Source: an uncultured Alphaproteobacteria bacterium (lineage in GTDB: Bacteria; Pseudomonadota; Alphaproteobacteria; RF32; CAG-239). From it: a stretch of DNA of 64,000 bases. This document shows positions 17,632-53,737 of the stretch, one piece after another (positions within the stretch are counted from its first letter, which is position 1; every line of letters starts with the position of its first letter). The stretch is from contig CAKQRZ010000006.1 of NCBI GenBank assembly GCA_934271715.1, forward strand, positions 30,218-94,217, in the 5' to 3' direction. A model generated the notes under the pieces. The model saw nothing but the letters and a program-made list of their open reading frames with translations, had not been told where the DNA came from and searched no databases. The position numbers and the translations under genes are program-made.

Positions 17632-18969
17632 CTAGCCGATGTAGTTTCTGATTTTTAAAATTGAGCGGCTGACATTTTTAACAGCAGATTTCAAGTTTAA
17701 GTCATTATAGACTTCCAGCGCCGAATTAAAATAGTTGCGGGCTTCTTCCATCAGCTTGTCATCATCATTCTGCTTGCCCAGCAAATAAAAAATATTGCCG
17801 ATTTTTTCCTGAATTTCCGCCCAAGCCACCGGCTCATTATTCTGCATATAAATTTTTTGCTGATTTTTATAAGCTTCAATAGCCAGCTGCATCAGCTCAT
17901 TGCTTTTTGTCTGCATGCCCAAAGCCGTCAGATAGTTGCCGAGATAGCCCTCTATCCGGCACCAAGAAGCCGGAAACTGCGCCAAAGAATACACTTTTTC
18001 AGCTTCGCGCAATTTAGACACCGCGTCGCGCAAAGCCTGCAAATCGGCGGTATATTTCCAATATTCATAATGCAGTAAAGCCAGATGATAAGAAATAAGC
18101 CCGTAGTCATAAGGATAATTGCGGTTCAGATTCTTCTGCGCCGTCTGATAGCTGGAAATTGCCAATTTCAAATATTCGGCCGAATTTGCCCTATTTTGCA
18201 AAAATGCCGCTTCATAGAGCTGCCCTAAATTGTTATAAATGCAGCCGTAATAAATAGGCAGCCGCATAAACTGTTTATTTTTCAGCGCCGTATCAAAGAG
18301 GTTTTGGATAATTTCCACATCTTTCAGGCTCAGATTATCGCGGGTGTTGCACAAATAGATTTTACCCAGCATATTCATAATATAGGGCATAAACTCTTTT
18401 TGAATATCCTTAGGCGATTTGTCGGCCGAAAGCAGGGCTATCAGCTCGCTCAAAACCTTAGGCTGGCGGCGGCGCTGCTCATTGGTAACCGGAGTTATAG
18501 CCGCCACGATAATCCCATATATCAACAGCAGCAGCGACTCCGAAAAATTGTTGGTATCCGTCAGATAATTCAACGGAATAAACAGGCTGTCCAAAAGCGA
18601 AAATGACAGACTGTTCGGAATTACATATTGGTTATCCACCTGAAAATTCAGCCGGATTTTGCCGTCTTCTTCATAGCCCCAAATCACTATATCCGCACCG
18701 GTTGAACTCAAAATCTTATTGCCGCGGTCAATAAAATCAAAAAAGTTGCGGCTTTGCAAATTCAAAAAGCTTTTAGCAAACGGTTCATTAAAAAAAGTCA
18801 CGCTGAACAAATTACTTTGTTTTAAAAGTTCGGCAAAGCGTAGGCCGCAGTTGAGGCTGCATTTATCCTCAAACGCCACTACCGTAACCCGAAACAGCCC
18901 CGTTTCTTCTTTCTTTTTCTGCGGAGCCAGCAAATTACATATATTCAGCAAATTCGGCGAAAACGACAT
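17632..18969 (-). CDS. TPR-like repeat protein
   Basis: 445 aa with repeated helical A..Y/L..A patterns in the C-terminal half. Abuts the upstream membrane protein gene. Confidence 0.55.
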   Translation of the reverse strand: MSFSPNLLNICNLLAPQKKKEETGLFRVTVVAFEDKCSLNCGLRFAELLKQSNLFSVTFFNEPFAKSFLNLQSRNFFDFIDRGNKILSSTGADIVIWGYEEDGKIRLNFQVDNQYVIPNSLSFSLLDSLFIPLNYLTDTNNFSESLLLLIYGIIVAAITPVTNEQRRRQPKVLSELIALLSADKSPKDIQKEFMPYIMNMLGKIYLCNTRDNLSLKDVEIIQNLFDTALKNKQFMRLPIYYGCIYNNLGQLYEAAFLQNRANSAEYLKLAISSYQTAQKNLNRNYPYDYGLISYHLALLHYEYWKYTADLQALRDAVSKLREAEKVYSLAQFPASWCRIEGYLGNYLTALGMQTKSNELMQLAIEAYKNQQKIYMQNNEPVAWAEIQEKIGNIFYLLGKQNDDDKLMEEARNYFNSALEVYNDLNLKSAVKNVSRSILKIRNYIG

Positions 18970-20094
18970 TTATTTTTCCTTTTTCCGAGCTGTGGTTTTG
19001 CGTTTTCTGCCAGTTTTGGCGGCTTTAGCCGGCGTGTTCAATGATTTTATATCGTTATGAATATCGGATATATTTTTTTTGACATCGGCAATAAATTCCT
19101 GATTGATTTTTTTCAGGCTGCTGTCAAACGGGTGCAGCATGGTATAGCCAAGCCAGCTCATTATGCCGAAACCGATAATGACAAGGCTGTACTGATTTAT
19201 AGCAAACAGCTGGAACCAGCCGATTAACAGGCTTATACTGCAGATTTTTGCCACGCTGCGCACCAAAAAATTCAGGCTGTATTTATAGGCGGCCTGCGCG
19301 CTGTTGGTATTTTCAAACAAAGCGCCGGATTTTACGGCAACAAATTTGTTCCAAACCGCAAAAAATAACTCACTCCAGAAAAACGTGGTAAAAATCACGC
19401 AGGAGCTAAAGCTGTATTCGCCCGAATCCAACAGCATCAGCGCCGCAATCAAATAGGCCAGCGCACAGCAGGAACCGTTGTCTAACGGAACCCGCACCGT
19501 ATTCAGATTGATGCAGAAATAGCCGCCTAAGGTGCCTATCAGCAAGGCAGAGCATAAGGTTATATATAAAGGAGCGGCTGAAAATAGAAACAGCACCGCC
19601 ATGCCGAGCAAGGTTACAACCGACGGAACTATAACAATGTGCGGCAGAAAGTTCAATACTCCGTAAAAAATACAAAAGACAGAAAAGAAAACTATTAAGC
19701 ATAATCTGGCTGCCCAAACATTGTGCATGCCGTATGAAAAACCGTCGCCGAGCGGCTGCAGAAATACCGTTGCAGCGACGCAGGCCGAAACAATCAGCCC
19801 ATAACGCCAGCCTGAGCAGAACATGGATGCTATAAAAATAACCGCGGCAAATAATAACGGCAAAAAAGCACGGGCGGCAGTTAAAGGCTCAATAAAATCA
19901 TTATGCTCAAAAAAGTAATATACAAAAACCGTGCCGACCGCATAAAACATATAAATATAGCTGAAAGGCAGCATTGTCGGCTTAACCTGCAAGGTTTGCT
20001 GATATTTGTTGGCAATAGGCGTAAACACCAGCAGCATTGCCGCAAAACCCGCCAATACCAACAACATAAAGATAATTATACTTGTATTGAACAT
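18970..20094 (-). CDS. polytopic membrane protein with basic C-terminal tail
   Basis: 374 aa, about 9-10 hydrophobic helices, tail AKAAKTGRKRKTTARKKEK. Confidence 0.55.
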   Translation of the reverse strand: MFNTSIIIFMLLVLAGFAAMLLVFTPIANKYQQTLQVKPTMLPFSYIYMFYAVGTVFVYYFFEHNDFIEPLTAARAFLPLLFAAVIFIASMFCSGWRYGLIVSACVAATVFLQPLGDGFSYGMHNVWAARLCLIVFFSVFCIFYGVLNFLPHIVIVPSVVTLLGMAVLFLFSAAPLYITLCSALLIGTLGGYFCINLNTVRVPLDNGSCCALAYLIAALMLLDSGEYSFSSCVIFTTFFWSELFFAVWNKFVAVKSGALFENTNSAQAAYKYSLNFLVRSVAKICSISLLIGWFQLFAINQYSLVIIGFGIMSWLGYTMLHPFDSSLKKINQEFIADVKKNISDIHNDIKSLNTPAKAAKTGRKRKTTARKKEK

Positions 20095-28698: not shown

Positions 28699-30504
28699 TT
28701 AGCCGCCGCGCACATTTTTATTTTGGCGGACCGCCGCGGCCATATAGTTATCACGCGTTCCGGACGGCTGCTTAAACAAGTCCGGAGCATAGTAATACGG
28801 CGGCATAATATTGGCGACACATTGTTCATTAGGCTTGGCCCGCAAAGTTTCCAACGCACCTTTAATAGCTTCGGCATCCTCTGTAAACTGCGGCATGCTG
28901 TTTTTCATTTTATAATCCGGACGGGTTTTATAGCGTCTGACTTTTTTCTTGCGCCCTTTGACAATTTCGGTCGTGACAACCGGCGTTTTTTTCATTTTTA
29001 CAGAACCATCGGCATTGACCTTGCATTTTAAGCATTGATCCAAAGTCAAGTTATAGCAGGAAGACGGCTTAAATGATTTCACCTCGCTCGGCTTCAGATG
29101 ACCGTTAAGCAGCAAATGCACTACAAACAAACGCTTAGAGATTCCGCCGTCAACATTCCAAAGCGCCATGCATTGACTCAGATATTTATTGGATTTCTGC
29201 GCATTCAAAGCCTCCAAAAATTTAGAATCGTCAAACCGATTGGCAGTTACAAAAGCAAAATTCTTGGTTGCCAGCATCTGCTTTTTATCAAGCTTAACTT
29301 TAACCAGTCCCAAGATTTTCGGCAGAATAAAAAAGTTGGCCATTCTTTCCACCTGCTGCATTCCCTGCATTTCGGTAGTGGTTTGCCCATTCTGCACATA
29401 AACGGACTTTCGGCCGTCGGCGCCGATTTTTTCCCACGGCAGCCCTTTTTCATCCAAATAATTGGTGCAGCCGTAGCCGATAGTCAAAAAGCCTTTGCCG
29501 TCATCATAGGCAGAAGCGTGGAAGTTTTCGGCAAACGCCACAAAAATATTAAACTCGCTTTCAGTTTTTATAAACATATTCAGATTATGGCGCTGCACAT
29601 CGCTGAGCTGCTCTTTACCCAAACCGCGTTCGCTTAAGAACTGCTGCACGTTTTTATCCAGAGCCTCAAAGCCGGTTTTGCTTTTAGCGCTGCGGACGGC
29701 AGCCGGTTTAGGGGAAGAATATTCGGTAATGGCATGCGACACGCTTTTTATCATTTTAGTCGGAACCATGCTGGCTTCCGCTGTGTTTTCTTTTTTATCT
29801 TTCGGAGCCGACGACTTGTAAATTCCCAGCGTCAAAAGACCGGCAATGGTCGTTGCACCAAAAGCCAGCTGGATTTTGCTGCGGTTTTTATTCCAAACTC
29901 TTTTTACCTGTTCCAGACGCTTTAGATATTTTTGGCTTATCTTTTGGAAAACCGGCACAGACAGACGCTGCAAGAATCCTGATATTTTCGGGCTTTTCTG
30001 CTTTACCATATCTTCCAGCTTAGCGGCCGAAACCATGGTTTTATCCTGATACTTTTGCAGCAGATATTCATTATATTCGGCATCCAAGCTCTTAACGCTG
30101 CCGCAGTCAACTTTAACATAGCGCTTTTGCTCCGGCTTATTTTTATTTAAGGCCATAGTCAAGCGAATCGCCTTATTATAACGCTTGTATATTTCATCGG
30201 CGATTTTAAGCTGAGCTTCCTGCTTTTGCATATTGCGCAGACGGTAAGGAGTTACAATAACTCGGTCGGCAAACCTCAGAGTCGGAATTTTGCGATAGCC
30301 GTTATCACTATATTTTGCAATTTCCTGAGATTGAGAATTTAAGTATTTACTAAACAGGGCTTTTTCAAAATTCTCGCAGTTTTCGGTTGGATTCGCATAA
30401 GCATACGGAACAATGAAGTCATATTTTCCTACTGAAATTTTAATCGGATTAAGTCTGCTGTTTTTGTATTCCTGCAATAAATAGTATTCATATTCTTGTT
30501 TCAT
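28699..30504 (-). CDS. membrane-anchored protein with GH24 (phage-type) lysozyme-like domain
   Basis: 601 aa with a single TM helix (IQLAFGATTIAGLLTLGIY). The motif ENFHASAYDDGKGFLTIGYG matches the E..x..AY.D..G..TIGYG signature of GH24 lysozymes. Confidence 0.6.
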   Translation of the reverse strand: MKQEYEYYLLQEYKNSRLNPIKISVGKYDFIVPYAYANPTENCENFEKALFSKYLNSQSQEIAKYSDNGYRKIPTLRFADRVIVTPYRLRNMQKQEAQLKIADEIYKRYNKAIRLTMALNKNKPEQKRYVKVDCGSVKSLDAEYNEYLLQKYQDKTMVSAAKLEDMVKQKSPKISGFLQRLSVPVFQKISQKYLKRLEQVKRVWNKNRSKIQLAFGATTIAGLLTLGIYKSSAPKDKKENTAEASMVPTKMIKSVSHAITEYSSPKPAAVRSAKSKTGFEALDKNVQQFLSERGLGKEQLSDVQRHNLNMFIKTESEFNIFVAFAENFHASAYDDGKGFLTIGYGCTNYLDEKGLPWEKIGADGRKSVYVQNGQTTTEMQGMQQVERMANFFILPKILGLVKVKLDKKQMLATKNFAFVTANRFDDSKFLEALNAQKSNKYLSQCMALWNVDGGISKRLFVVHLLLNGHLKPSEVKSFKPSSCYNLTLDQCLKCKVNADGSVKMKKTPVVTTEIVKGRKKKVRRYKTRPDYKMKNSMPQFTEDAEAIKGALETLRAKPNEQCVANIMPPYYYAPDLFKQPSGTRDNYMAAAVRQNKNVRGG

Positions 30505-32605: not shown

Positions 32606-33694
32606 CTATTCCGTCAATAATTTTTCATATTGTTCCGACAAGCAATAGGTACGGTTTTTCTTTGCCTTATTCGCCATTTTTAAGAATTCGGCTTCAACCC
32701 ATTTATTTAGCAGCAGCCTTGCCGATTGTGAGGACAAGCCTAAATATTGCCCAGCTTGATTAGAGGTAATTTCTTTATACTCAGTAAATAATTCAAGAAT
32801 TTTCCGCTGTTTGATATCAAGATTTCTCAACATCGGCACTATATCTGCCGTTGTCTTATTATTTTGTTCGGCGGATGCTTTAATATCTATATTAGCAAAG
32901 GCTTCTGATACGCCTTTTATAAAATATTCCAGCCAAGAAGTTATATCTGCATTATTACGTCCATAATAATAATTATGATGCGGATGAGTCACTAATGCGT
33001 TATAATAATCTTGCAAATTCTTAGCATAATATTCTTCAAGCGAATAAATGCCTTTTAACCCATATCCGTATTTCCGCATTAAATAGCTTGTGACTAACCG
33101 GGCTGTTCGTCCGTTGCCGTCATAATATGGGTGTATCGTCACAAATTGATAGTGAAAAAGTCCGGCTATAATCGGTATCGGCAGGATATCTGCATTATTC
33201 TTTACCCATTTTACCAAATCTTTCATTAGACTCGGAACATCTTTGGCTTCGGGCGGCAAATATATCATTGCCCCATCAGAACTGTCATATATTACATTCT
33301 GCCCGTCACGATAAGGAATAGTCTTTTTCTGGTTTTCTATAATTGTATGTATTTTCTGGATAAAACTTTCAGAGAACGGTTCATTTATTTCTAAATATTT
33401 TTCCATATAGTTAATTGCTGCATAATACGCTTTCACTTCCTTTTCATCATGTCCTTGATAATCATTTGCAGATTTACTGCCGGAATATAATGCGGTTTCA
33501 ACCTGCTTAAAAGAAAGATTATTGCCTTCAATTTGCGTAGAATAATGAGTTTGGGCAACTTTAGCCGATTTATGCAATGAAGATAAAATAACCGGAGACA
33601 GCCGCTTATCCTCAAAACCATTCTTAACCACTTCAATTTTTGTAAGATTAGAAAGAATATTTTTAGTAATTGTATATTTAGGCATCCAGCTCAT
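32606..33694 (-). CDS. Fic-family protein (class II-like, with internal inhibitory motif) and C-terminal wHTH-like region
   Basis: Fic motif HPYYDGNGRTAR. N-terminal STQIEG matches the (S/T)xxxE(G/N) inhibitory helix. GGAG RBS upstream of the ATG at 33694. Confidence 0.85.
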   Translation of the reverse strand: MSWMPKYTITKNILSNLTKIEVVKNGFEDKRLSPVILSSLHKSAKVAQTHYSTQIEGNNLSFKQVETALYSGSKSANDYQGHDEKEVKAYYAAINYMEKYLEINEPFSESFIQKIHTIIENQKKTIPYRDGQNVIYDSSDGAMIYLPPEAKDVPSLMKDLVKWVKNNADILPIPIIAGLFHYQFVTIHPYYDGNGRTARLVTSYLMRKYGYGLKGIYSLEEYYAKNLQDYYNALVTHPHHNYYYGRNNADITSWLEYFIKGVSEAFANIDIKASAEQNNKTTADIVPMLRNLDIKQRKILELFTEYKEITSNQAGQYLGLSSQSARLLLNKWVEAEFLKMANKAKKNRTYCLSEQYEKLLTE

Positions 33695-33782
33695 CTGCAG
33701 TCTCCGATAGTTTATGATTATAATATGATTAAATAACGAATAAATCAATAATAATTTAAGTTTATCTGAAATATTTTTACAT

Positions 33783-33810
33783 TTGACTTATTGCTACATT
33801 AGCCTATAAT
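33783..33810 (+). promoter_or_regulatory. sigma70-like promoter of the P3 cassette
   Basis: TTGACT, 16-nt spacer, TATAAT, about 36 nt upstream of the GAGGAAAG RBS and the ATG at 33847. Confidence 0.55.
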
Positions 33811-33870
33811 AGTAATATCAATTAACCTAAAAATGAGGAAAGAAAGATGAAAAATAAGCTATTCAAAGGT

Positions 33871-33884
33871 CTCTCTCTCTCTCT
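33871..33884 (+). repeat. (CT)7 dinucleotide tract in the 5' coding leader of P3
   Basis: Counted directly: ggt ctctctctctctct gca. Confidence 0.95.
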
Positions 33885-34010
33885 GCAAATCCTAAACATC
33901 TGATTAAAGGCGTATTTTTTGCCGCTCAGCGTGTTTTTGCAGAGTTCAGCGCAAAAAATCACACATTCGGAAATAACAAGTTCAGTAGCAACTCTATAAA
34001 GAGTTCTGGA

Positions 34011-34691
34011 TTGCTTCGTCGTTACACTCCTCGCAATGACATTTGCTCGGCTGGTCGCAGTATGATTGAAATGCTCGGCGTTCTGGCGATTATTGGTGTA
34101 CTGAGCGTGGGCGGAATTGCTGGCTACTCCAAAGCGATGGAAAAGTTCAAGCTCAATAAAATCATCGGTGAATATAATCAGCTTATTATGTGGATTTTGG
34201 AAAATCAGCTAAGCCTGAAAAAATTAGAAGACAAGACAAAACTTGCAAATGTTATTATCGCCGCAAATGTGCTGCCTGCCGACTGGTCAGCTGTTACCGA
34301 TACATATTTGTCTGACGGCAAAGGAAACTTAGTACACGCCTATGTAAATCAGGGAAAATCACTCTATAACCTACAACCGCGGATAACCATTGATTTCAAC
34401 TTAGGCGGACTATCGGGAGATTTAACCGATAAAAATGCAGATATTTTTTCTACAAACTTTTCTGATAAACTTTGTTTTGAGCTTTTTAATAATTTGGTAA
34501 AACCTTTGCACTCGCAAACCATTTACGGATATGTATTTAAAAATCACAATCCGATTATATATTGGGGAGACGCCTACTGCGGACAAACTACCGGAAAATG
34601 TTTGAACAACATAACTCTAACAGAAATAAAAGAAATTTGCAGTTCCTGTGACAAAGAAAATGAGCGCTGCAATGTAACAATAGGTTTTTAA
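34011..34691 (+). CDS. type IV pilin/pseudopilin-like protein, paralog P3 (frame is open upstream to 33858; the ATG at 33847 is out of frame across the CT tract)
   Basis: ...CSAG then RSMIEMLGVLAIIGVLSVGGIAGYSKAMEKFK. C-terminal C-x6-C-x12-C-x2-C-x6-C. A possible TTG start at 34011 has a weak AAGAG Shine-Dalgarno sequence. Confidence 0.72.
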   Translation: MLRRYTPRNDICSAGRSMIEMLGVLAIIGVLSVGGIAGYSKAMEKFKLNKIIGEYNQLIMWILENQLSLKKLEDKTKLANVIIAANVLPADWSAVTDTYLSDGKGNLVHAYVNQGKSLYNLQPRITIDFNLGGLSGDLTDKNADIFSTNFSDKLCFELFNNLVKPLHSQTIYGYVFKNHNPIIYWGDAYCGQTTGKCLNNITLTEIKEICSSCDKENERCNVTIGF

Positions 34692-34704
34692 CACAATAAT
34701 ACCA

Positions 34705-34756
34705 TAAAAAAAATTGTAATATAACAGCCTTTGCGGCGCTATATTACAATTTTTTG
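34705..34756. terminator. bidirectional terminator
   Basis: 12-bp stem aattgtaatata / tatattacaatt with flanking A and T runs. Confidence 0.65.
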
Positions 34757-34773
34757 TGCATGCCGTATTGTAA

Positions 34774-35340
34774 TTATTTTACATTTTTACGGATAACTTT
34801 TTTCTTTGTATCTTTTTTGCTATGGACCGCAGAAATAACTAAAGCATTTTCCAAATCTTTTTCAGTACAAAGTCCTATAGCAACCGGATTTTTCGGTTTC
34901 AATTCAGACATATCCGAATGTTCACCATCACGAATTTTAGCTATGGTCGGTTTTGTTGTTCCCACAAGTTTACAAATTTGCGAATCCATAATTTCAGGAC
35001 AATGTTTCAAAATCCACAAAATAGCGGCAGGTTTATCGCTGCGCTGAGACGGAGACAAAACTTTTTTAGCTTTAGCGTTACGCTCTTTGACATTTTTTTC
35101 CAAAACATTGGCAACCAGTTCGGCTTTTGGGTCTGCCTCACAGCGGCGGATTTCTTCCCAGCTGAGCTGTCCGTTATTGATAGGGCTCATTCCCTGAATA
35201 TTATAGGCAATATCTCCGTCTGCAATAGCCTGAATTTCCAATTCATGAATTTCACAGAATTTGGCAATTTGATGAAATGTCAAAGTTGTGTTATCCACCA
35301 ACCATACAGCAGTTGCTTTCGGCATTAAAGGAGCGGTCAT
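34774..35340 (-). CDS. DUF1013-family protein (alphaproteobacterial cell-cycle regulator-like)
   Basis: PLMPKATAVWLVDNTTLTFHQIAKFCEIHELEIQAIADGD, recognised from memory of the DUF1013 family. Confidence 0.7.
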   Translation of the reverse strand: MTAPLMPKATAVWLVDNTTLTFHQIAKFCEIHELEIQAIADGDIAYNIQGMSPINNGQLSWEEIRRCEADPKAELVANVLEKNVKERNAKAKKVLSPSQRSDKPAAILWILKHCPEIMDSQICKLVGTTKPTIAKIRDGEHSDMSELKPKNPVAIGLCTEKDLENALVISAVHSKKDTKKKVIRKNVK

Positions 35341-35471
35341 TATTCAAATCCTTTCATAAACAAAACATTTTTTCTTACAATAGACATAGTTGCGGCAAGA
35401 TACAAGTAATTTTTTTGGTTATAAACGCAAAAAGCCTGCAAAAAAGCAGGCCTTTGCCATAAATTTACAAA

Positions 35472-35702
35472 TTAGTTGCTAGATTTCAAACCGAAAGCGC
35501 CAAATTTGCTGTTGAAACGACCAACGCGGCCGCCTGTATCTACAACGCGGCGGATACCAGTCCAAGCCGGATGAGATTTAGGGTCAATTTCCAGCAGCAT
35601 TTTTTCGCCGGCTTTACCCCAAGTAGATTTGGTTTTAACTTCAGTTCCATCTGTCATCACATATGTAATCTCGTGATAATCAGGGTGAATTCCTTTTTTC
35701 AT
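35472..35702 (-). CDS. rpmE: 50S ribosomal protein L31
   Basis: [12 protein letters not shown]..., with a GGAGA RBS. The upstream TTG extension was rejected. Confidence 0.93.
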
Positions 35703-35813
35703 TTTTATCTCCAAATAAAATACTTTATATAGTTTTTACGCTTTTATACATTAAGCAAACAAAATACGCAAGTATTATTTTTACTTATTTTTACTGTTTT
35801 TTAAATTTTTTTG

Positions 35814-36596
35814 TTATTTTGCAAAAGTATCAGCAGCTTTTTTGCGCAAAGCTTCGTTTGAAGCGATTAAGGCACCGCCGAATAAAACTTTGGCAAAGTC
35901 TTCGGAACGCACATCGGTTTCGCCCAAAGCCACAATATAGCCGCCTGCTTCTTTAACCAAAAGCATACCCGCGGCAATAGTCTGCGGCAAATTGTCGGCA
36001 GAAGCGACAATATCCAGCTTTCCGGCAGCTAAATAAGCCAAATCCAGCGAGTTTACACCTTTTACCTGTACATTTTTGCTTAAGCTCAAAGCTTTTCTAA
36101 ACAATTCGGCGTCAGCGCTGCTGCCAATAAGAGCCTGTTCGGCAATTTTAGCTCCGGCCACGCGCAAGCGCTCGTGACTGCGAAAACCTTCTTTGAATGC
36201 GCCGCAGCCTTTTTCGGCAAAAAACAATTCATCATAAACCGGACTATAAATCACGGCGTCTACGACCACGCTGTTTTCCACCATAGCCACCGAAACAGCA
36301 AAATTGCCGTTACCATGAGCAAAATTGGCGTAACCATCAATCGGAGCAACCAAAAAATAGTTGCCGCTGGCCGGAATGGTATCTTCTTTTTTGCTGATAA
36401 AAGCGTAAGCCGGTTTTAACTTAGCCAGTTCTTCTTTAAGAGTTTTTTCTACTTTTTCATAAGAACGCTGAGCAAAGCGGCCATCATTGTGGCCGGATTG
36501 CAGATGTTCCAATTCATTAAAGTCGCGCGATAAGGCAATAGACGCTTTTTTTACAGCGTTTGCCATGGCGGTCAATGCAGTTGAAATATAAGCCAT
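35814..36596 (-). CDS. suhB: inositol monophosphatase family protein (SuhB-like)
   Basis: 260 aa with IMPase-like motifs (APIDGYANFAHG, the WxxDPIDGT equivalent). TAATG overlap with efp. Confidence 0.8.
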   Translation of the reverse strand: MAYISTALTAMANAVKKASIALSRDFNELEHLQSGHNDGRFAQRSYEKVEKTLKEELAKLKPAYAFISKKEDTIPASGNYFLVAPIDGYANFAHGNGNFAVSVAMVENSVVVDAVIYSPVYDELFFAEKGCGAFKEGFRSHERLRVAGAKIAEQALIGSSADAELFRKALSLSKNVQVKGVNSLDLAYLAAGKLDIVASADNLPQTIAAGMLLVKEAGGYIVALGETDVRSEDFAKVLFGGALIASNEALRKKAADTFAK

Positions 36597-37159
36597 TATT
36601 TTGCTCTTTCAACATAGTTAGCTTCAGAAGTGCCAACCACAATTTTGTCGCCCACGCCGATAAACGGAGGAACAGTTGTGCGCACGCCGTTGTCCAAAAT
36701 AGCCGGCTTGTAAGAAGAAGAAACGGTTTGACCTTTAATCACAGGTTCGGTTTCAACCACTTCGCAAACAACCTGCAGCGGCAAATCAACAGAAATAGGA
36801 CGGCCGTCGATGTAAGAAACTTTAACGCTCATACCATCTGTCAAAAACGGACGAGAATCGCCGAGCAAATCAGACGGCATGGTAAATTGTTCAAAAGTTT
36901 CGGATTCCATAAAGGTCAAGCCAGTAGAATCTTCAAACAAGAATTGGCAGTCTTTGTCTTCTACCATCAATTTTTCTACAGTATCTTCAGTTCTGAAACG
37001 TTCATTAGTTTTTGTTCCGGCTTCAACTTCTTTCATTTCCACCTGCATAAAAGCACCGCCTTTACCCGGTTTAATGTGTACAGCTTTGGTAATTGTCCAC
37101 GGTTTGCCCTTATATTCAATAACCCAGCCAATTCTAATTGCTCCAGCAAGTTGTTTCAT
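36596..37159 (-). CDS. efp: elongation factor P
   Basis: HIKPGKGGAFMQVEMK motif, 187 aa. Confidence 0.96.
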   Translation of the reverse strand: MKQLAGAIRIGWVIEYKGKPWTITKAVHIKPGKGGAFMQVEMKEVEAGTKTNERFRTEDTVEKLMVEDKDCQFLFEDSTGLTFMESETFEQFTMPSDLLGDSRPFLTDGMSVKVSYIDGRPISVDLPLQVVCEVVETEPVIKGQTVSSSYKPAILDNGVRTTVPPFIGVGDKIVVGTSEANYVERAK

Positions 37160-37230
37160 ATTTTATCTCCTATTTACAATGTTAAAAATGATTATTTATT
37201 TTTGATGTTTGCAACATAAACCAACATTTT

Positions 37231-37755
37231 TTATTTCGCAACAAAAATCTTATAGGAAGTATCGCTTAAAATCACAAAATCCGCCGGTAAATTTGACACA
37301 TCGGCATCATCTTCTGGCATTACCGCACTTTGAATCAAGAAAAATTCGCCGTACCATTTCAGCAGTTCGGCATTGGCGGCGAATCCGTCTTTCCAAAAGC
37401 GGAAGATAATAAAATCCGGTTCGCATTCACTAACCAACATGGCTTCATGCCGGCGATTGCGGCAAATAGCTCCCAACAAAGCTTTTTTGCATTTTGCTTT
37501 AATTTCTTTGATTTTTTTAGCAGGATTTTCATCTTTTGATGTGTCAACAATCAAGCCATCGCCCAATTTTTGCAAATATAAATCGGCGGCTTTTTCGCCG
37601 GAGAGCAACGTAAGTTTTCCGGCAGTTTTAGCCTTGGCGCAAAAGTCCGCAATAAAGCTTTGCGGCAGCGAATCGGGCAAAATAAAACATTGCAGTTTAG
37701 AATCGGCGATAAGGTCTGTATTTTCCTGAGTAATTTTAATGATTAAGTTTTGCAT
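37231..37755 (-). CDS. hypothetical protein (possibly ThiE/TenI-fold)
   Basis: ORF with an uncertain start. Only faint resemblance to thiamine-phosphate synthase-like proteins. Confidence 0.35.
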   Translation of the reverse strand: MQNLIIKITQENTDLIADSKLQCFILPDSLPQSFIADFCAKAKTAGKLTLLSGEKAADLYLQKLGDGLIVDTSKDENPAKKIKEIKAKCKKALLGAICRNRRHEAMLVSECEPDFIIFRFWKDGFAANAELLKWYGEFFLIQSAVMPEDDADVSNLPADFVILSDTSYKIFVAK

Positions 37756-37835
37756 TTTGACATTCTTTATGTTAGCTATTAAATATAATGTCAAAAGTAT
37801 ATAACAAATTGCAATAAAGGAAAGTCTTTTTTATC

Positions 37836-38477
37836 ATGGAAACAGAAAAATTGGAACAAAGCAAAAATTCTTTGGAACGTTTGAAAAAATCGGTTGATGA
37901 ACTTATTGAAATTGTACATAAGCAGCAAGCCGATTTTGCACAGAAACTGCAGGCAGAACAAGGCAAAACAGCGTTAGAAAGCGCTAAAGCCGAAGTTTTA
38001 AGCAGCGAAAATGAAAAGCTTAAAGCTGAATTGGAAGCCGCTAAAAACAATACGGAAAATGAAACCCGCATGCAGCAGATGCAGAATGAAATTGAAAACA
38101 AGGCGGCCAAAATCGGCAATCTGCAAAATGAAGTGCAGAATCTGAACAACGCCATAGCGAATCGCAAAACTCAGCTGGAAGAGCTGGAGGCTAAAAATAA
38201 AGAACTGCAAGAGCAGCTGGAAGAAGCCAACGGACGGGTTTTGACTTTGGAACAAACAAGTTCCGCCGGCAGCACAGAGCTTGAAGAACTAAAAGAGCAG
38301 CTGGTCGCCGAAACTCTGCAAAAAGAAGATTTAGCCCAAAAATGTCAGGATTTTGAAGCTAAACTGGCGGAAATGCAAACAACAATCAGCCAAACCTCGG
38401 AAAATATTGACGATGTTGTGGCCAGACTGGAAAAGGTGTTAGAAGAAAATGGGGCAAGTTACAATAACGATAGATAA
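37836..38477 (+). CDS. coiled-coil protein upstream of zapA
   Basis: 213 aa with an E/K/Q/L-rich heptad-like sequence. Overlaps the zapA start. Confidence 0.6.
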   Translation: METEKLEQSKNSLERLKKSVDELIEIVHKQQADFAQKLQAEQGKTALESAKAEVLSSENEKLKAELEAAKNNTENETRMQQMQNEIENKAAKIGNLQNEVQNLNNAIANRKTQLEELEAKNKELQEQLEEANGRVLTLEQTSSAGSTELEELKEQLVAETLQKEDLAQKCQDFEAKLAEMQTTISQTSENIDDVVARLEKVLEENGASYNNDR

Positions 38478-38769
38478 GCGCGAATACGCTATTACCTGCG
38501 AGGACGGCGAAGAAGCTCATATTATCAAGCTTTCGCGTATTCTTGACGCCAAAGCAAAACTGTTGTCGCAAAGCATTGGCTTGGTAAATGAAAATATGAT
38601 GCTGGCTATGGTCGGTTTGCTGCTGGCCGATGAAAATCAGGATTTACGCACCAAAAGCGGCGGAGTTTCGGATGATGAAATCAAGCAGCTGGACTCTGCC
38701 AACGCTCAAGCCATAGACAGCGAATCGCAAAGAATCCACAGCTTGATTCAGAGTATTGAGCCATTGTGA
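38449..38769 (+). CDS. zapA: cell division protein ZapA
   Basis: VTITIDKREYAITCEDGEEAHIIKLSRILD, typical of the ZapA N-terminal domain. Confidence 0.85.
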   Translation: MGQVTITIDKREYAITCEDGEEAHIIKLSRILDAKAKLLSQSIGLVNENMMLAMVGLLLADENQDLRTKSGGVSDDEIKQLDSANAQAIDSESQRIHSLIQSIEPL

Positions 38770-38842
38770 TTTTACTATTGAAAATCTGTTTTTTCTGCTT
38801 GAAAACGCGCAGTTTTTACGATAATATTATTATATAAATAAA

Positions 38843-39033
38843 GACTGTCTGATGCGTCATCACCGCATGTCTTTCCGGCCAACATTATTTTTTAGGGAGC
38901 TGTCTCTGTCTAAATCGTGGTTTAGTTATATGGCACCCACCTTGTACAAGCGGTTCGGTAGAGAATGTTCTCGGATACGGTCAGACGGTCGCAGATTTGG
39001 CACCGCCCTTTTGGGGCGGTGTTTTTCTTTTTT
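38843..39033 (+). ncRNA. ssrS: probable 6S RNA
   Basis: Located immediately after zapA, as in E. coli. Closing helix gactgtctga (38843-52) with tcagacggtc (38981-90). Internal caccttgtacaagcggttcggtag resembles the conserved E. coli 6S segment CACCUUGAACCAAGGGUUCAAGG. Terminator caccgccc-tttt-ggggcggtg plus a T-run at 39001-33. Confidence 0.6.
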
Positions 39034-39139
39034 ATACCCTCCCACAACAAAAACACTCCGCCGCATTGGGGTGCGGCAGAGTGCAGATATAATTAGGATT
39101 TTTTATTTATTTTATATTTTCCATCACCTCCTTATAAAA

Positions 39140-52950: not shown

Positions 52951-52966
52951 CTCTCTCTCTCTCTCT
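52951..52966 (+). repeat. (CT)8 dinucleotide tract in the 5' coding leader of P5
   Basis: Counted directly. Confidence 0.95.
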
Positions 52967-53092: not shown

Positions 53093-53737
53093 TTGCTTCG
53101 CGTTGCTCGCAATGACGTCTGCAGCGTGGGACGCTCTATGATAGAAATGCTGGGCGTTTTAGCGATTGTTGGTGTTTTATCCGTGGGCGGCATCGCTGGA
53201 TATTCCAAAGCGATGGAAAAGTGGAAAATAGATAAAGCCACTGAGGAATATTCGCATATTATTTTTGGAATGCTGGAGCATATTGACGATGTGCGGAAAT
53301 TAAGTCCGCAAAGCGGATATACAGGACTTGCCGACTTGGCTATTGCCTTAAACCTTATACCAAACAGCTGGAATAAAATTGGTGATAAACATTTTAAGGA
53401 CGCATACGGAAATATGGTTCAGGTGCAAGCTCGCGCCGAAAATTTAGTCTTTGATATATTTATCGGCGGTATTCAATCAAACAATGACAGCACATCATCT
53501 CCGGGGTGGTCGCCGCGTTTATGCGAATCTTTAATTTCTAATTTAGCGCAACCGTTACATTCTGCCGTAAATATTGTGAATACCTGGCAAAGTGGAAAAG
53601 GTGGGATATATTATCGCGGAGACGCATATTGCGGCGGCAATATACCTTGCGTCAGCAGCATAACGCTCAACAATATTCATGAGATGTGCAAACATTGCGA
53701 TGGCTCTCGCGAGTGCTGTATAACTCTGGAATTTTAG
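53093..53737 (+). CDS. type IV pilin/pseudopilin-like protein, paralog P5 (frame is open upstream to the CT tract)
   Basis: ...CSVG then RSMIEMLGVLAIVGVLSVGGIAGYSKAMEKWK. C-terminal C-x5-C-x12-C-x2-C-x5-CC. A possible TTG start at 53093 has an AAGGA Shine-Dalgarno sequence. Confidence 0.72.
   Translation: MLRVARNDVCSVGRSMIEMLGVLAIVGVLSVGGIAGYSKAMEKWKIDKATEEYSHIIFGMLEHIDDVRKLSPQSGYTGLADLAIALNLIPNSWNKIGDKHFKDAYGNMVQVQARAENLVFDIFIGGIQSNNDSTSSPGWSPRLCESLISNLAQPLHSAVNIVNTWQSGKGGIYYRGDAYCGGNIPCVSSITLNNIHEMCKHCDGSRECCITLEF

Follow-up and report, generated by a model that had tools for sequence, protein, structure and literature searches.

A CT dinucleotide tract that probably switches the translation of type IV pilin-like genes in uncultured human-gut Alphaproteobacteria

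The subject of this analysis is a gene for a type IV pilin-like protein, termed P3, and the (CT)n repeat near its 5' end, in a 64,000-nucleotide (nt) stretch of DNA (positions 30,218 to 94,217 of contig CAKQRZ010000006.1; hereafter the window) from an uncultured Alphaproteobacteria bacterium. The P3 promoter scores 11/12 and is the top promoter-like site of the region; its -35 element and the TATAGAAT -10 region are common to cassettes at 41.2 kb and 52.9 kb. It is followed by a ribosome-binding site (RBS) and an ATG, and seven codons (KNKLFKG) lie between this ATG and a (CT)7 tract (Table 1). The frame of the ATG reads MKNKLFKGLSLSLQILNI and meets a TGA after 18 codons. The pilin frame is open from 33858, directly after a TAA at 33855-33857, to its stop at 34689-34691, and the first ATG, GTG or TTG codon within it is a TTG at 34011. 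All of these elements, from the promoter to the 18-codon stop and the open pilin frame, had been named in the original prediction for this locus and were confirmed by direct reading.

The distance from the P3 ATG to the first codon after the tract is 38 nt, or 24+2n nt in general, so that six or nine units fuse the ATG to the pilin frame and seven or eight units leave the two out of frame. The fused P3 leader is 69 amino acids (aa) long and ends with ...CSAG before RSMIEML. Chance alone would hardly produce such a tract: apart from the three in the cassettes, the 64 kb contain no dinucleotide tract of five or more units, and dinucleotide-preserving shuffles give an expectation of 0.00 for matches to (CT)7. 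A like architecture had been claimed for two further loci, and cassettes were indeed read at 41201 and 52927, at the head of the pilin-like genes P4 and P5. All of the window cassettes (3/3) are out of frame. In P4, 154 leader codons follow the tract, with Gly-1 at 41701-41703, and no stop interrupts the 163 codons that begin at 41212.

Table 1. Coordinates in the window of the P3 elements, the other cassette-driven genes and the repeat-free paralogues
Feature	Positions	Strand	Remarks
P3 sigma-70-type promoter	33783-33810	+	TTGACT 33783-33788, 16-nt spacer, TATAAT 33805-33810
P3 ribosome-binding site and start codon	33835-33849	+	GAGGAAAG 33835-33842, ATG 33847-33849
P3 (CT)7 tract, proposed slipped-strand switch	33871-33884	+	24 nt after ATG; out of frame
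TGA ending the 18-codon ATG-frame product at 7 units	33901-33903	+	
P3 leader in pilin frame, 57 codons (ANPKHL...CSAG)	33885-34055	+	Gly-1 at 34053-34055
TTG, possible internal start, 15-aa leader MLRRYTPRNDICSAG	34011-34013	+	Inside TTGCTTCG...CGCAATGA element
Mature pilin-like protein RSMIEMLGVLAIIGVLSVGGIAGY...	34056-34691	+	211 aa and stop
Second cassette-driven pilin gene, P4	41201-42342	+	ATG 41201, (CT)7 41225-41238, out of frame
Third cassette-driven pilin gene, P5	52927-53737	+	ATG 52927, (CT)8 52951-52966, out of frame; Gly-1 53129-53131
Paralogue P1	12460-13113	+	8-aa leader MYKNFEKG before RSMIEML, own ATG 12460, no repeat
Paralogue P2	31584-32342	-	Own AGGAG RBS and ATG, 35-aa leader with GLLRRY..ND, no repeat

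The P3 protein carries a class III signal-peptide motif, in which ...CSAG is joined to RSMIEMLGVLAIIGVLSVGGIAGY with Gly at -1, Glu at +5 and a hydrophobic helix of ~21 residues. Across 79 homologues, G69, E74 and the hydrophobic stretch show little or no variation. The AlphaFold2 model (mb18856fa5077) places a 46-residue helix (residues 73-118) before an alpha/beta globular domain with conserved cysteines, with a predicted local distance difference test score (pLDDT) >90. These traits (the leader-final Gly, Glu+5, ~21 hydrophobic residues, a long N-terminal helix and a Cys-containing globular domain) are those of type IV pilins and pseudopilins. The protein differs from type IV pilins in its +1 residue, which is Arg and not Phe or Met, in its leader, which ranges from 69 to >200 aa among the copies, and in a globular domain that has no neighbor in the PDB. 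The globular domain (residues 120-280; window positions 34206-34688) may, to judge from the model, be an undescribed pilin head-domain fold. The family of the protein counts >7,500 members in the protein collection. One relative bears the NCBI name 'type II secretion system protein'.

Variation of the tract was traced with an artificial protein, that of a 6-unit P3 allele, as the query against the protein collection. Natural in-frame P3 proteins were recovered, P0001 and P0003 (280 aa each) and P0002 (282 aa), which align with the artificial query along its whole length at 95-99% identity (99% for P0001). P0002 begins with MKNKLFKGLSLSLSANPK, which corresponds to nine units, and P0004 (226 aa) is a TTG-started gene call from an out-of-frame allele. 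The encoding contigs keep the gene order Fic-pilin-TrcR-L31. Orthologous P3 tracts have six units in L001 and L004, seven in the window, L003, L121 and L133, and nine in L002, in contigs that are 98.0-99.75% identical to the window, and the flanks of the tract are identical in L001-L004. L001 matches the window at 99.57% over 3.7 kb, and the single gap in this alignment is the CT unit; L003 matches at 99.75% over 4.4 kb with no gaps, L002 at 98.0% over 5.3 kb with four gaps, and L004 at 98.2% over 2.0 kb with one gap. At the P5 locus the window has eight units and L005 has six, with 99.05% identity over 20.8 kb, and the P5 orthologue of L005 encodes an in-frame protein, P0012. When complete copies were clustered by mature protein at 93% identity or more, 12 groups had more than one member, and tract length differs within 8 of the 12. 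As a stand-in for heterogeneity within a sample, pairs of contigs from one assembly were sought, and among the members listed no orthologue group contained such a pair. The check that had been proposed at the outset, a comparison of tract lengths across related genomes and metagenomes, therefore revealed heterogeneity (6/7/9 at P3; 6/8 at P5), and the predicted fusion at six or nine units, with a leader of ~69 aa, agrees with both the frame arithmetic and the natural 6- and 9-unit proteins.

A different kind of change was seen in P0015 and P0011, where a point mutation removes the stop just 5' of the tract in the out-of-frame reading (TAA to CAA at seven units and TGA to TGG at eight), and gene callers place the start of the pilin frame at an ATG further upstream. 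These alleles may be alternative expression routes or chance variants.

The leader frame downstream of the tract is open without exception. In 45 of the 45 cassettes with a downstream pilin, the G-R-S-M-I-E motif lies in the post-tract frame, and the leaders of these cassettes (52-207 codons after the tract; one copy in a larger set has 303) are free of stops throughout their 3,980 codons, whereas the two remaining frames have 199 and 329. A leader frame that is stop-free in 45/45 cassettes is sensible only with translation from the upstream ATG. Leader indels between strains are always in frame. One mature pilin can have differing leaders across samples, of 54 codons versus 98, 122 or 126, and of 116 versus 303; pairs that share a mature pilin but differ in leader length are L008/L108, L011/L091, L049/L066 and L072/L078. 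At the P3 locus of L133, a Hadza contig, the leader carries an in-frame insert of 60 codons, AERNNIAFKGLD...APLY (L133:2500-2735 versus window 34008-34055), and modules of this insert recur in the paralogues P0030 and P0005-P0007. The comparison suggests that leaders undergo modular recombination.

Among the P3 orthologues, the ratio of nonsynonymous to synonymous polymorphism (pN/pS) is 1.29 in the leader and 0.20 in the mature part. The latter value indicates purifying selection and implies that the gene is functional despite most alleles being out of frame. AlphaFold2 gives the leader a pLDDT <50. The leader was also considered as a conserved protein domain and rejected as such, on account of its pN/pS and of the lack of a third-position excess. 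To judge from these alignments, it behaves as a translated spacer, in which frame and freedom from stops alone would be selected.

These properties bear on a regulatory upstream open reading frame (uORF), an alternative that accompanied the original prediction. As assessed here, the ATG-(CT)n product would be a short leader peptide with control over the gene behind it, and differences in unit number would be neutral microsatellite changes within a 5' untranslated region (UTR). Consistent with such a uORF, the ATG frame ends 13-18 codons after its start in 123 of 131 cassettes, and the amino-acid sequence of the leader is unconstrained. However, a UTR would not keep 3,980 codons stop-free in a single frame or all indels in frame, and the in-frame alleles encode uninterrupted fusion proteins. 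RNA structure does not help it either: RNAalifold and minimum-free-energy folds predict pairing of the RBS with the CT tract (33835-33884, purine-rich GAGGAAAGAAAGAUG), but the paired columns are all invariant, with no covariation, and shuffled sequences fold equally well (z = +0.47), so that the pairing was rejected as unsupported. The uORF is contradicted by the stop-free leader frame and is very improbable.

A scan of one genome per species for exact matches to the cassette pattern returned 60 stretches, all from human-gut metagenome-assembled genomes (MAGs), and a metagenome scan returned 67 further stretches. In total, 136 distinct cassettes were obtained, 11 with six units, 91 with seven, 33 with eight and one with nine. 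Loci fetched via in-frame or out-of-frame proteins were left out to give an unbiased sample (n = 131), in which eight tracts have six units, 90 have seven and 33 have eight; in-frame lengths thus make up 8/131 (6%), and 94% are out of frame. Genome CAKQDU has 30 cassettes, two of them in frame, and genome CAVKTH has 22, none in frame.

The 5' part of the cassette is strongly conserved. The RBS/ATG segment GAGGAAAGAAAGATGAAAAATAAGC is invariant in 30 diverse cassettes, the sole exception being L049 with one substitution directly after the ATG, and ATG, RBS and tract flanks are unchanged across diverse cassettes. The frameshifted copies could still be regarded as a silent reservoir, unexpressed at their own loci and serving as recombination donors for a constitutively expressed pilin gene of the P1 or P2 type, or as decaying pseudogenes. 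The high share of out-of-frame copies in consensus assemblies is compatible with this, as are the conserved 5' cassette and the first ~30 mature residues, which are possible recombination anchors, the occurrence of one mature pilin with different leaders, and three orphan cassettes that have no pilin. Yet each copy keeps the conserved promoter, RBS and ATG, the mature part has a pN/pS of 0.20, the leader is stop-free, and in-frame alleles exist at orthologous loci; donors or pseudogenes are therefore improbable as an explanation. The three orphan cassettes (L020 at ~2354, in minus-strand orientation, L033 at ~5837 and L064 at ~5701) keep the promoter, the ATG, the tract and the first part of the leader, and their frame ends after 93-122 codons; their sequence suggests truncation.

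That out-of-frame lengths predominate in genes under clear selection could also be taken as a sign that the 7- and 8-unit alleles are expressed without any DNA change, through slippage of the RNA polymerase or frameshifting of the ribosome at the tract. This idea has no direct support. Seven and eight units would require opposite shifts (-1 and +1), the cassette has no known slippery heptamer or long homopolymer, and changes of tract length are seen directly in the DNA, all of which makes decoding at the RNA level scarcely credible.

The tract polymorphism, the in-frame alleles and the stop-free leaders support the slipped-strand phase switch that was first proposed for P3. It is very probable that slipped-strand mispairing at (CT)n switches prepilin translation, with the gene on at six or nine units and off at seven or eight. 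P3 would then be a contingency gene, composed of a strong promoter, an RBS, an ATG and eight codons, the (CT)n tract, a long stop-free leader and a type IV pilin-like protein. Replication slippage would gain or lose CT units. With six or nine units, ribosomes from the ATG would read through into the prepilin; with seven or eight, translation would end 13-18 codons after the ATG and the gene would be off or expressed at a much lower level. The long N-terminal leader that is made in the on state would remain cytoplasmic, and a prepilin peptidase would cut after the conserved Gly. The slippage mechanism, its reversibility, the cleavage of the leader and a function in pili are what we infer from sequence comparison.

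One cassette heads many pilin genes (three in the window, 22-30 in related genomes), so that each cell could show a small random subset of them. On balance we lean towards a portable switch cassette on 20-30 pilin-like genes per genome, which would create a combinatorial, stochastic filament repertoire and would involve the longest class III leaders known. Copy numbers per genome are probably underestimates, since metagenome contigs often stop within a few bases of the CT tract (L070, L083, L096 at both ends, L100, L106 and L111); the multi-copy cassette of ~250 bp apparently breaks short-read assemblies.

The out-of-frame state may be leaky. The TTG at 34011, which is preceded by a weak AAGAG motif and had been named as an alternative start in the original prediction, could be a source of such expression. 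The tract might accordingly act as a volume control, in which an internal start (TTG 34011 in P3) provides a low constitutive level of pilin and the upstream ATG adds high-level translation. Most short-leader cassettes have a TTG 13-15 codons ahead of the cleavage site, with AAGG or AGGA 7-9 nt upstream in about half of them, and the resulting 15-aa leader in P3 would fit the described range of 6-26 aa (PMC4471445). The repeat-free paralogue P2 translates the GLLRRY..ND segment inside an ordinary ATG-led leader. Against this account, the RBS motif of P3 is poor and TTG is a weak start, the L006 and L022 cassettes have no internal canonical start, and up to 207 stop-free codons upstream of the TTG would be left unexplained by volume control alone. 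We consider it possible but doubtful.

Several observations weigh against a phase-variable prepilin. Internal ATG, GTG or TTG codons are found 4-40 codons before the cleavage site in 88 of 93 leaders, about half with a weak RBS motif, and the out-of-frame state is therefore possibly not silent. In-frame lengths are rare in consensus assemblies, the unbiased sample has no 9-unit tract, and its distribution could be an ordinary single mutational peak around seven. A rare in-frame consensus fits a repertoire in which each locus is on in a minority of cells, but a single peak is equally compatible with it, and consensus assemblies do not discriminate between the two. Leader diversity is equal across codon positions (0.12, 0.18 and 0.18), with no third-position excess, and with a leader pN/pS of 1.29 its translation is deduced solely from its freedom from stops and the conservation of its frame. 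The pilin-like identity is likewise drawn from the N-terminal motif and the modelled helix. Pfam N_methyl (PF07963) stays below threshold (E = 0.078-0.093; 13 bits versus a cut-off of 21.2), NCBIfam yields one match that is far below its cut-off, Foldseek against the PDB gives no match with E <0.1 (best 0.11), and a PDB sequence profile gives nothing significant. No pilus machinery, such as a prepilin peptidase, assembly ATPase or platform protein, was found among the large open reading frames (ORFs) of the window that were tested, and no GspE/PilB-type Walker motif in the 0.93 Mb of fetched DNA, which consists of loci and not whole genomes. To our knowledge, a prepilin leader of 69 to >200 aa is without precedent. 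The in-frame leader, which has 69 aa in P3 and reaches ~220 aa elsewhere in the family, falls outside the 6-26 aa described for class III prepilin leaders as they have been defined (PMC4471445).

The proposed switch mechanism matches one already known; the pilin-like target and the leader of 69 to >200 aa are new. In Neisseria opa genes, a CTCTT pentamer lies in the signal-peptide region, with ~11 gene copies in the gonococcus and 3-4 in the meningococcus. The analogy to opa in the original prediction holds for the logic of the family, a surface-protein multigene family in which every copy is equipped with a separate repeat switch in the leader region and the majority are off at a given time, but not for the closest mechanistic match, which is the CT tract of Helicobacter pylori oipA. 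Unlike opa, the present system uses a dinucleotide instead of a pentamer, comprises up to 30 copies and encodes pilin-like subunits instead of outer-membrane beta-barrels. H. pylori sabA, sabB and hopZ likewise have CT tracts in the region that encodes the signal peptide. In oipA, the length of the CT tract in the signal-peptide region sets the frame and thereby the on/off state, and it varies between strains (PMC10564699). As in oipA, the CT unit of the P3 cassette is situated a few codons after the ATG, in an N-terminal signal region that is predicted to be cleaved, and the length of the tract sets the reading frame. The P3 cassette differs from oipA in that the signal is of the class III prepilin type on a pilin-like protein, and not a Sec signal on an outer-membrane protein, that an unconstrained spacer of 52-207 codons separates the tract from the cleavage site, and that one cassette heads 22-30 genes per genome in an uncultured gut alphaproteobacterium.

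Stochastic variation of pilus components is known from Neisseria pilC (a poly-G tract), Neisseria pilE/pilS (recombination) and Haemophilus hif (TA repeats in the promoter). The present genes resemble these systems in that respect, but the repeat lies in the leader coding sequence of the pilin itself, whereas pilC encodes an assembly/adhesin protein, hif varies at the promoter and pilE/pilS at the level of gene conversion. In gut commensals, invertible promoters and DNA methylation have been the usual explanations of phase variation. The P3 locus indicates that a repeat-based contingency strategy, known from mucosal pathogens, is present in an uncultured alphaproteobacterial lineage of the human gut and extends across a very large family of surface-filament subunits. 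If this is true, a commensal would possess an opa-like repertoire of filament subunits, and its prepilin peptidase would still have to remove leaders of 69 to >200 aa; processing of the fusion products would require the accepted limit on prepilin leader length to be revised. For annotation, it is relevant that out-of-frame tracts make gene callers start at an internal TTG or call stubs of 13-18 codons. For strain-resolved metagenomics, the length of the tract provides a marker that evolves fast, and assemblies are broken by the repeated cassette.

Literature searches returned no specific description of the pilin-like family or of its lineage. The cassette-bearing MAGs, from the Hadza and other cohorts, are mostly labelled uncultured Alphaproteobacteria. 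Two MAGs labelled 'Bacteroidaceae bacterium', CAVKTH and CAVIDY, have 22 and 2 cassette copies, and L065 (CAVKTH010000088.1) is syntenic with window positions 34062-39115, from TrcR to elongation factor P (EF-P), at 89.5% identity. On this sequence evidence, the Bacteroidaceae label probably reflects wrong taxonomy or contaminated bins.

In the window, P3 is flanked by Fic (32606-33748, minus strand) and TrcR (34774-35340, minus strand), the latter an alphaproteobacterial cell-cycle regulator, and ribosomal protein L31, inositol monophosphatase and EF-P are encoded beyond them. Three minus-strand ORFs, 17632-18969 (445 aa), 18970-20094 (374 aa) and 39140-40909 (589 aa), have no Pfam or NCBIfam match, and a plus-strand ORF of 170 aa directly downstream of P5 (53833-54345) has no NCBIfam match. 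A 9-bp inverted repeat 3' of the P3 tract, CTCTGCAAA...TTTGCAGAG, was rejected, since its 3' arm varies (TTTACAGGG, TTTGCAAGT) and the other arm does not compensate. The conserved element TTGCTTCG(N)CGCAATGA is found at 34011-34039, 41563-41591 and 53093-53115, with a variant in P2 near 32215 on the minus strand. It has an ATTGC...GCAAT symmetry and is situated between the shared cassette and the gene-specific part. Its translation, GLLRR..RND, is present in the repeat-free P2 as well, and a recombination junction and an ancestral start region are both possibilities for its role.

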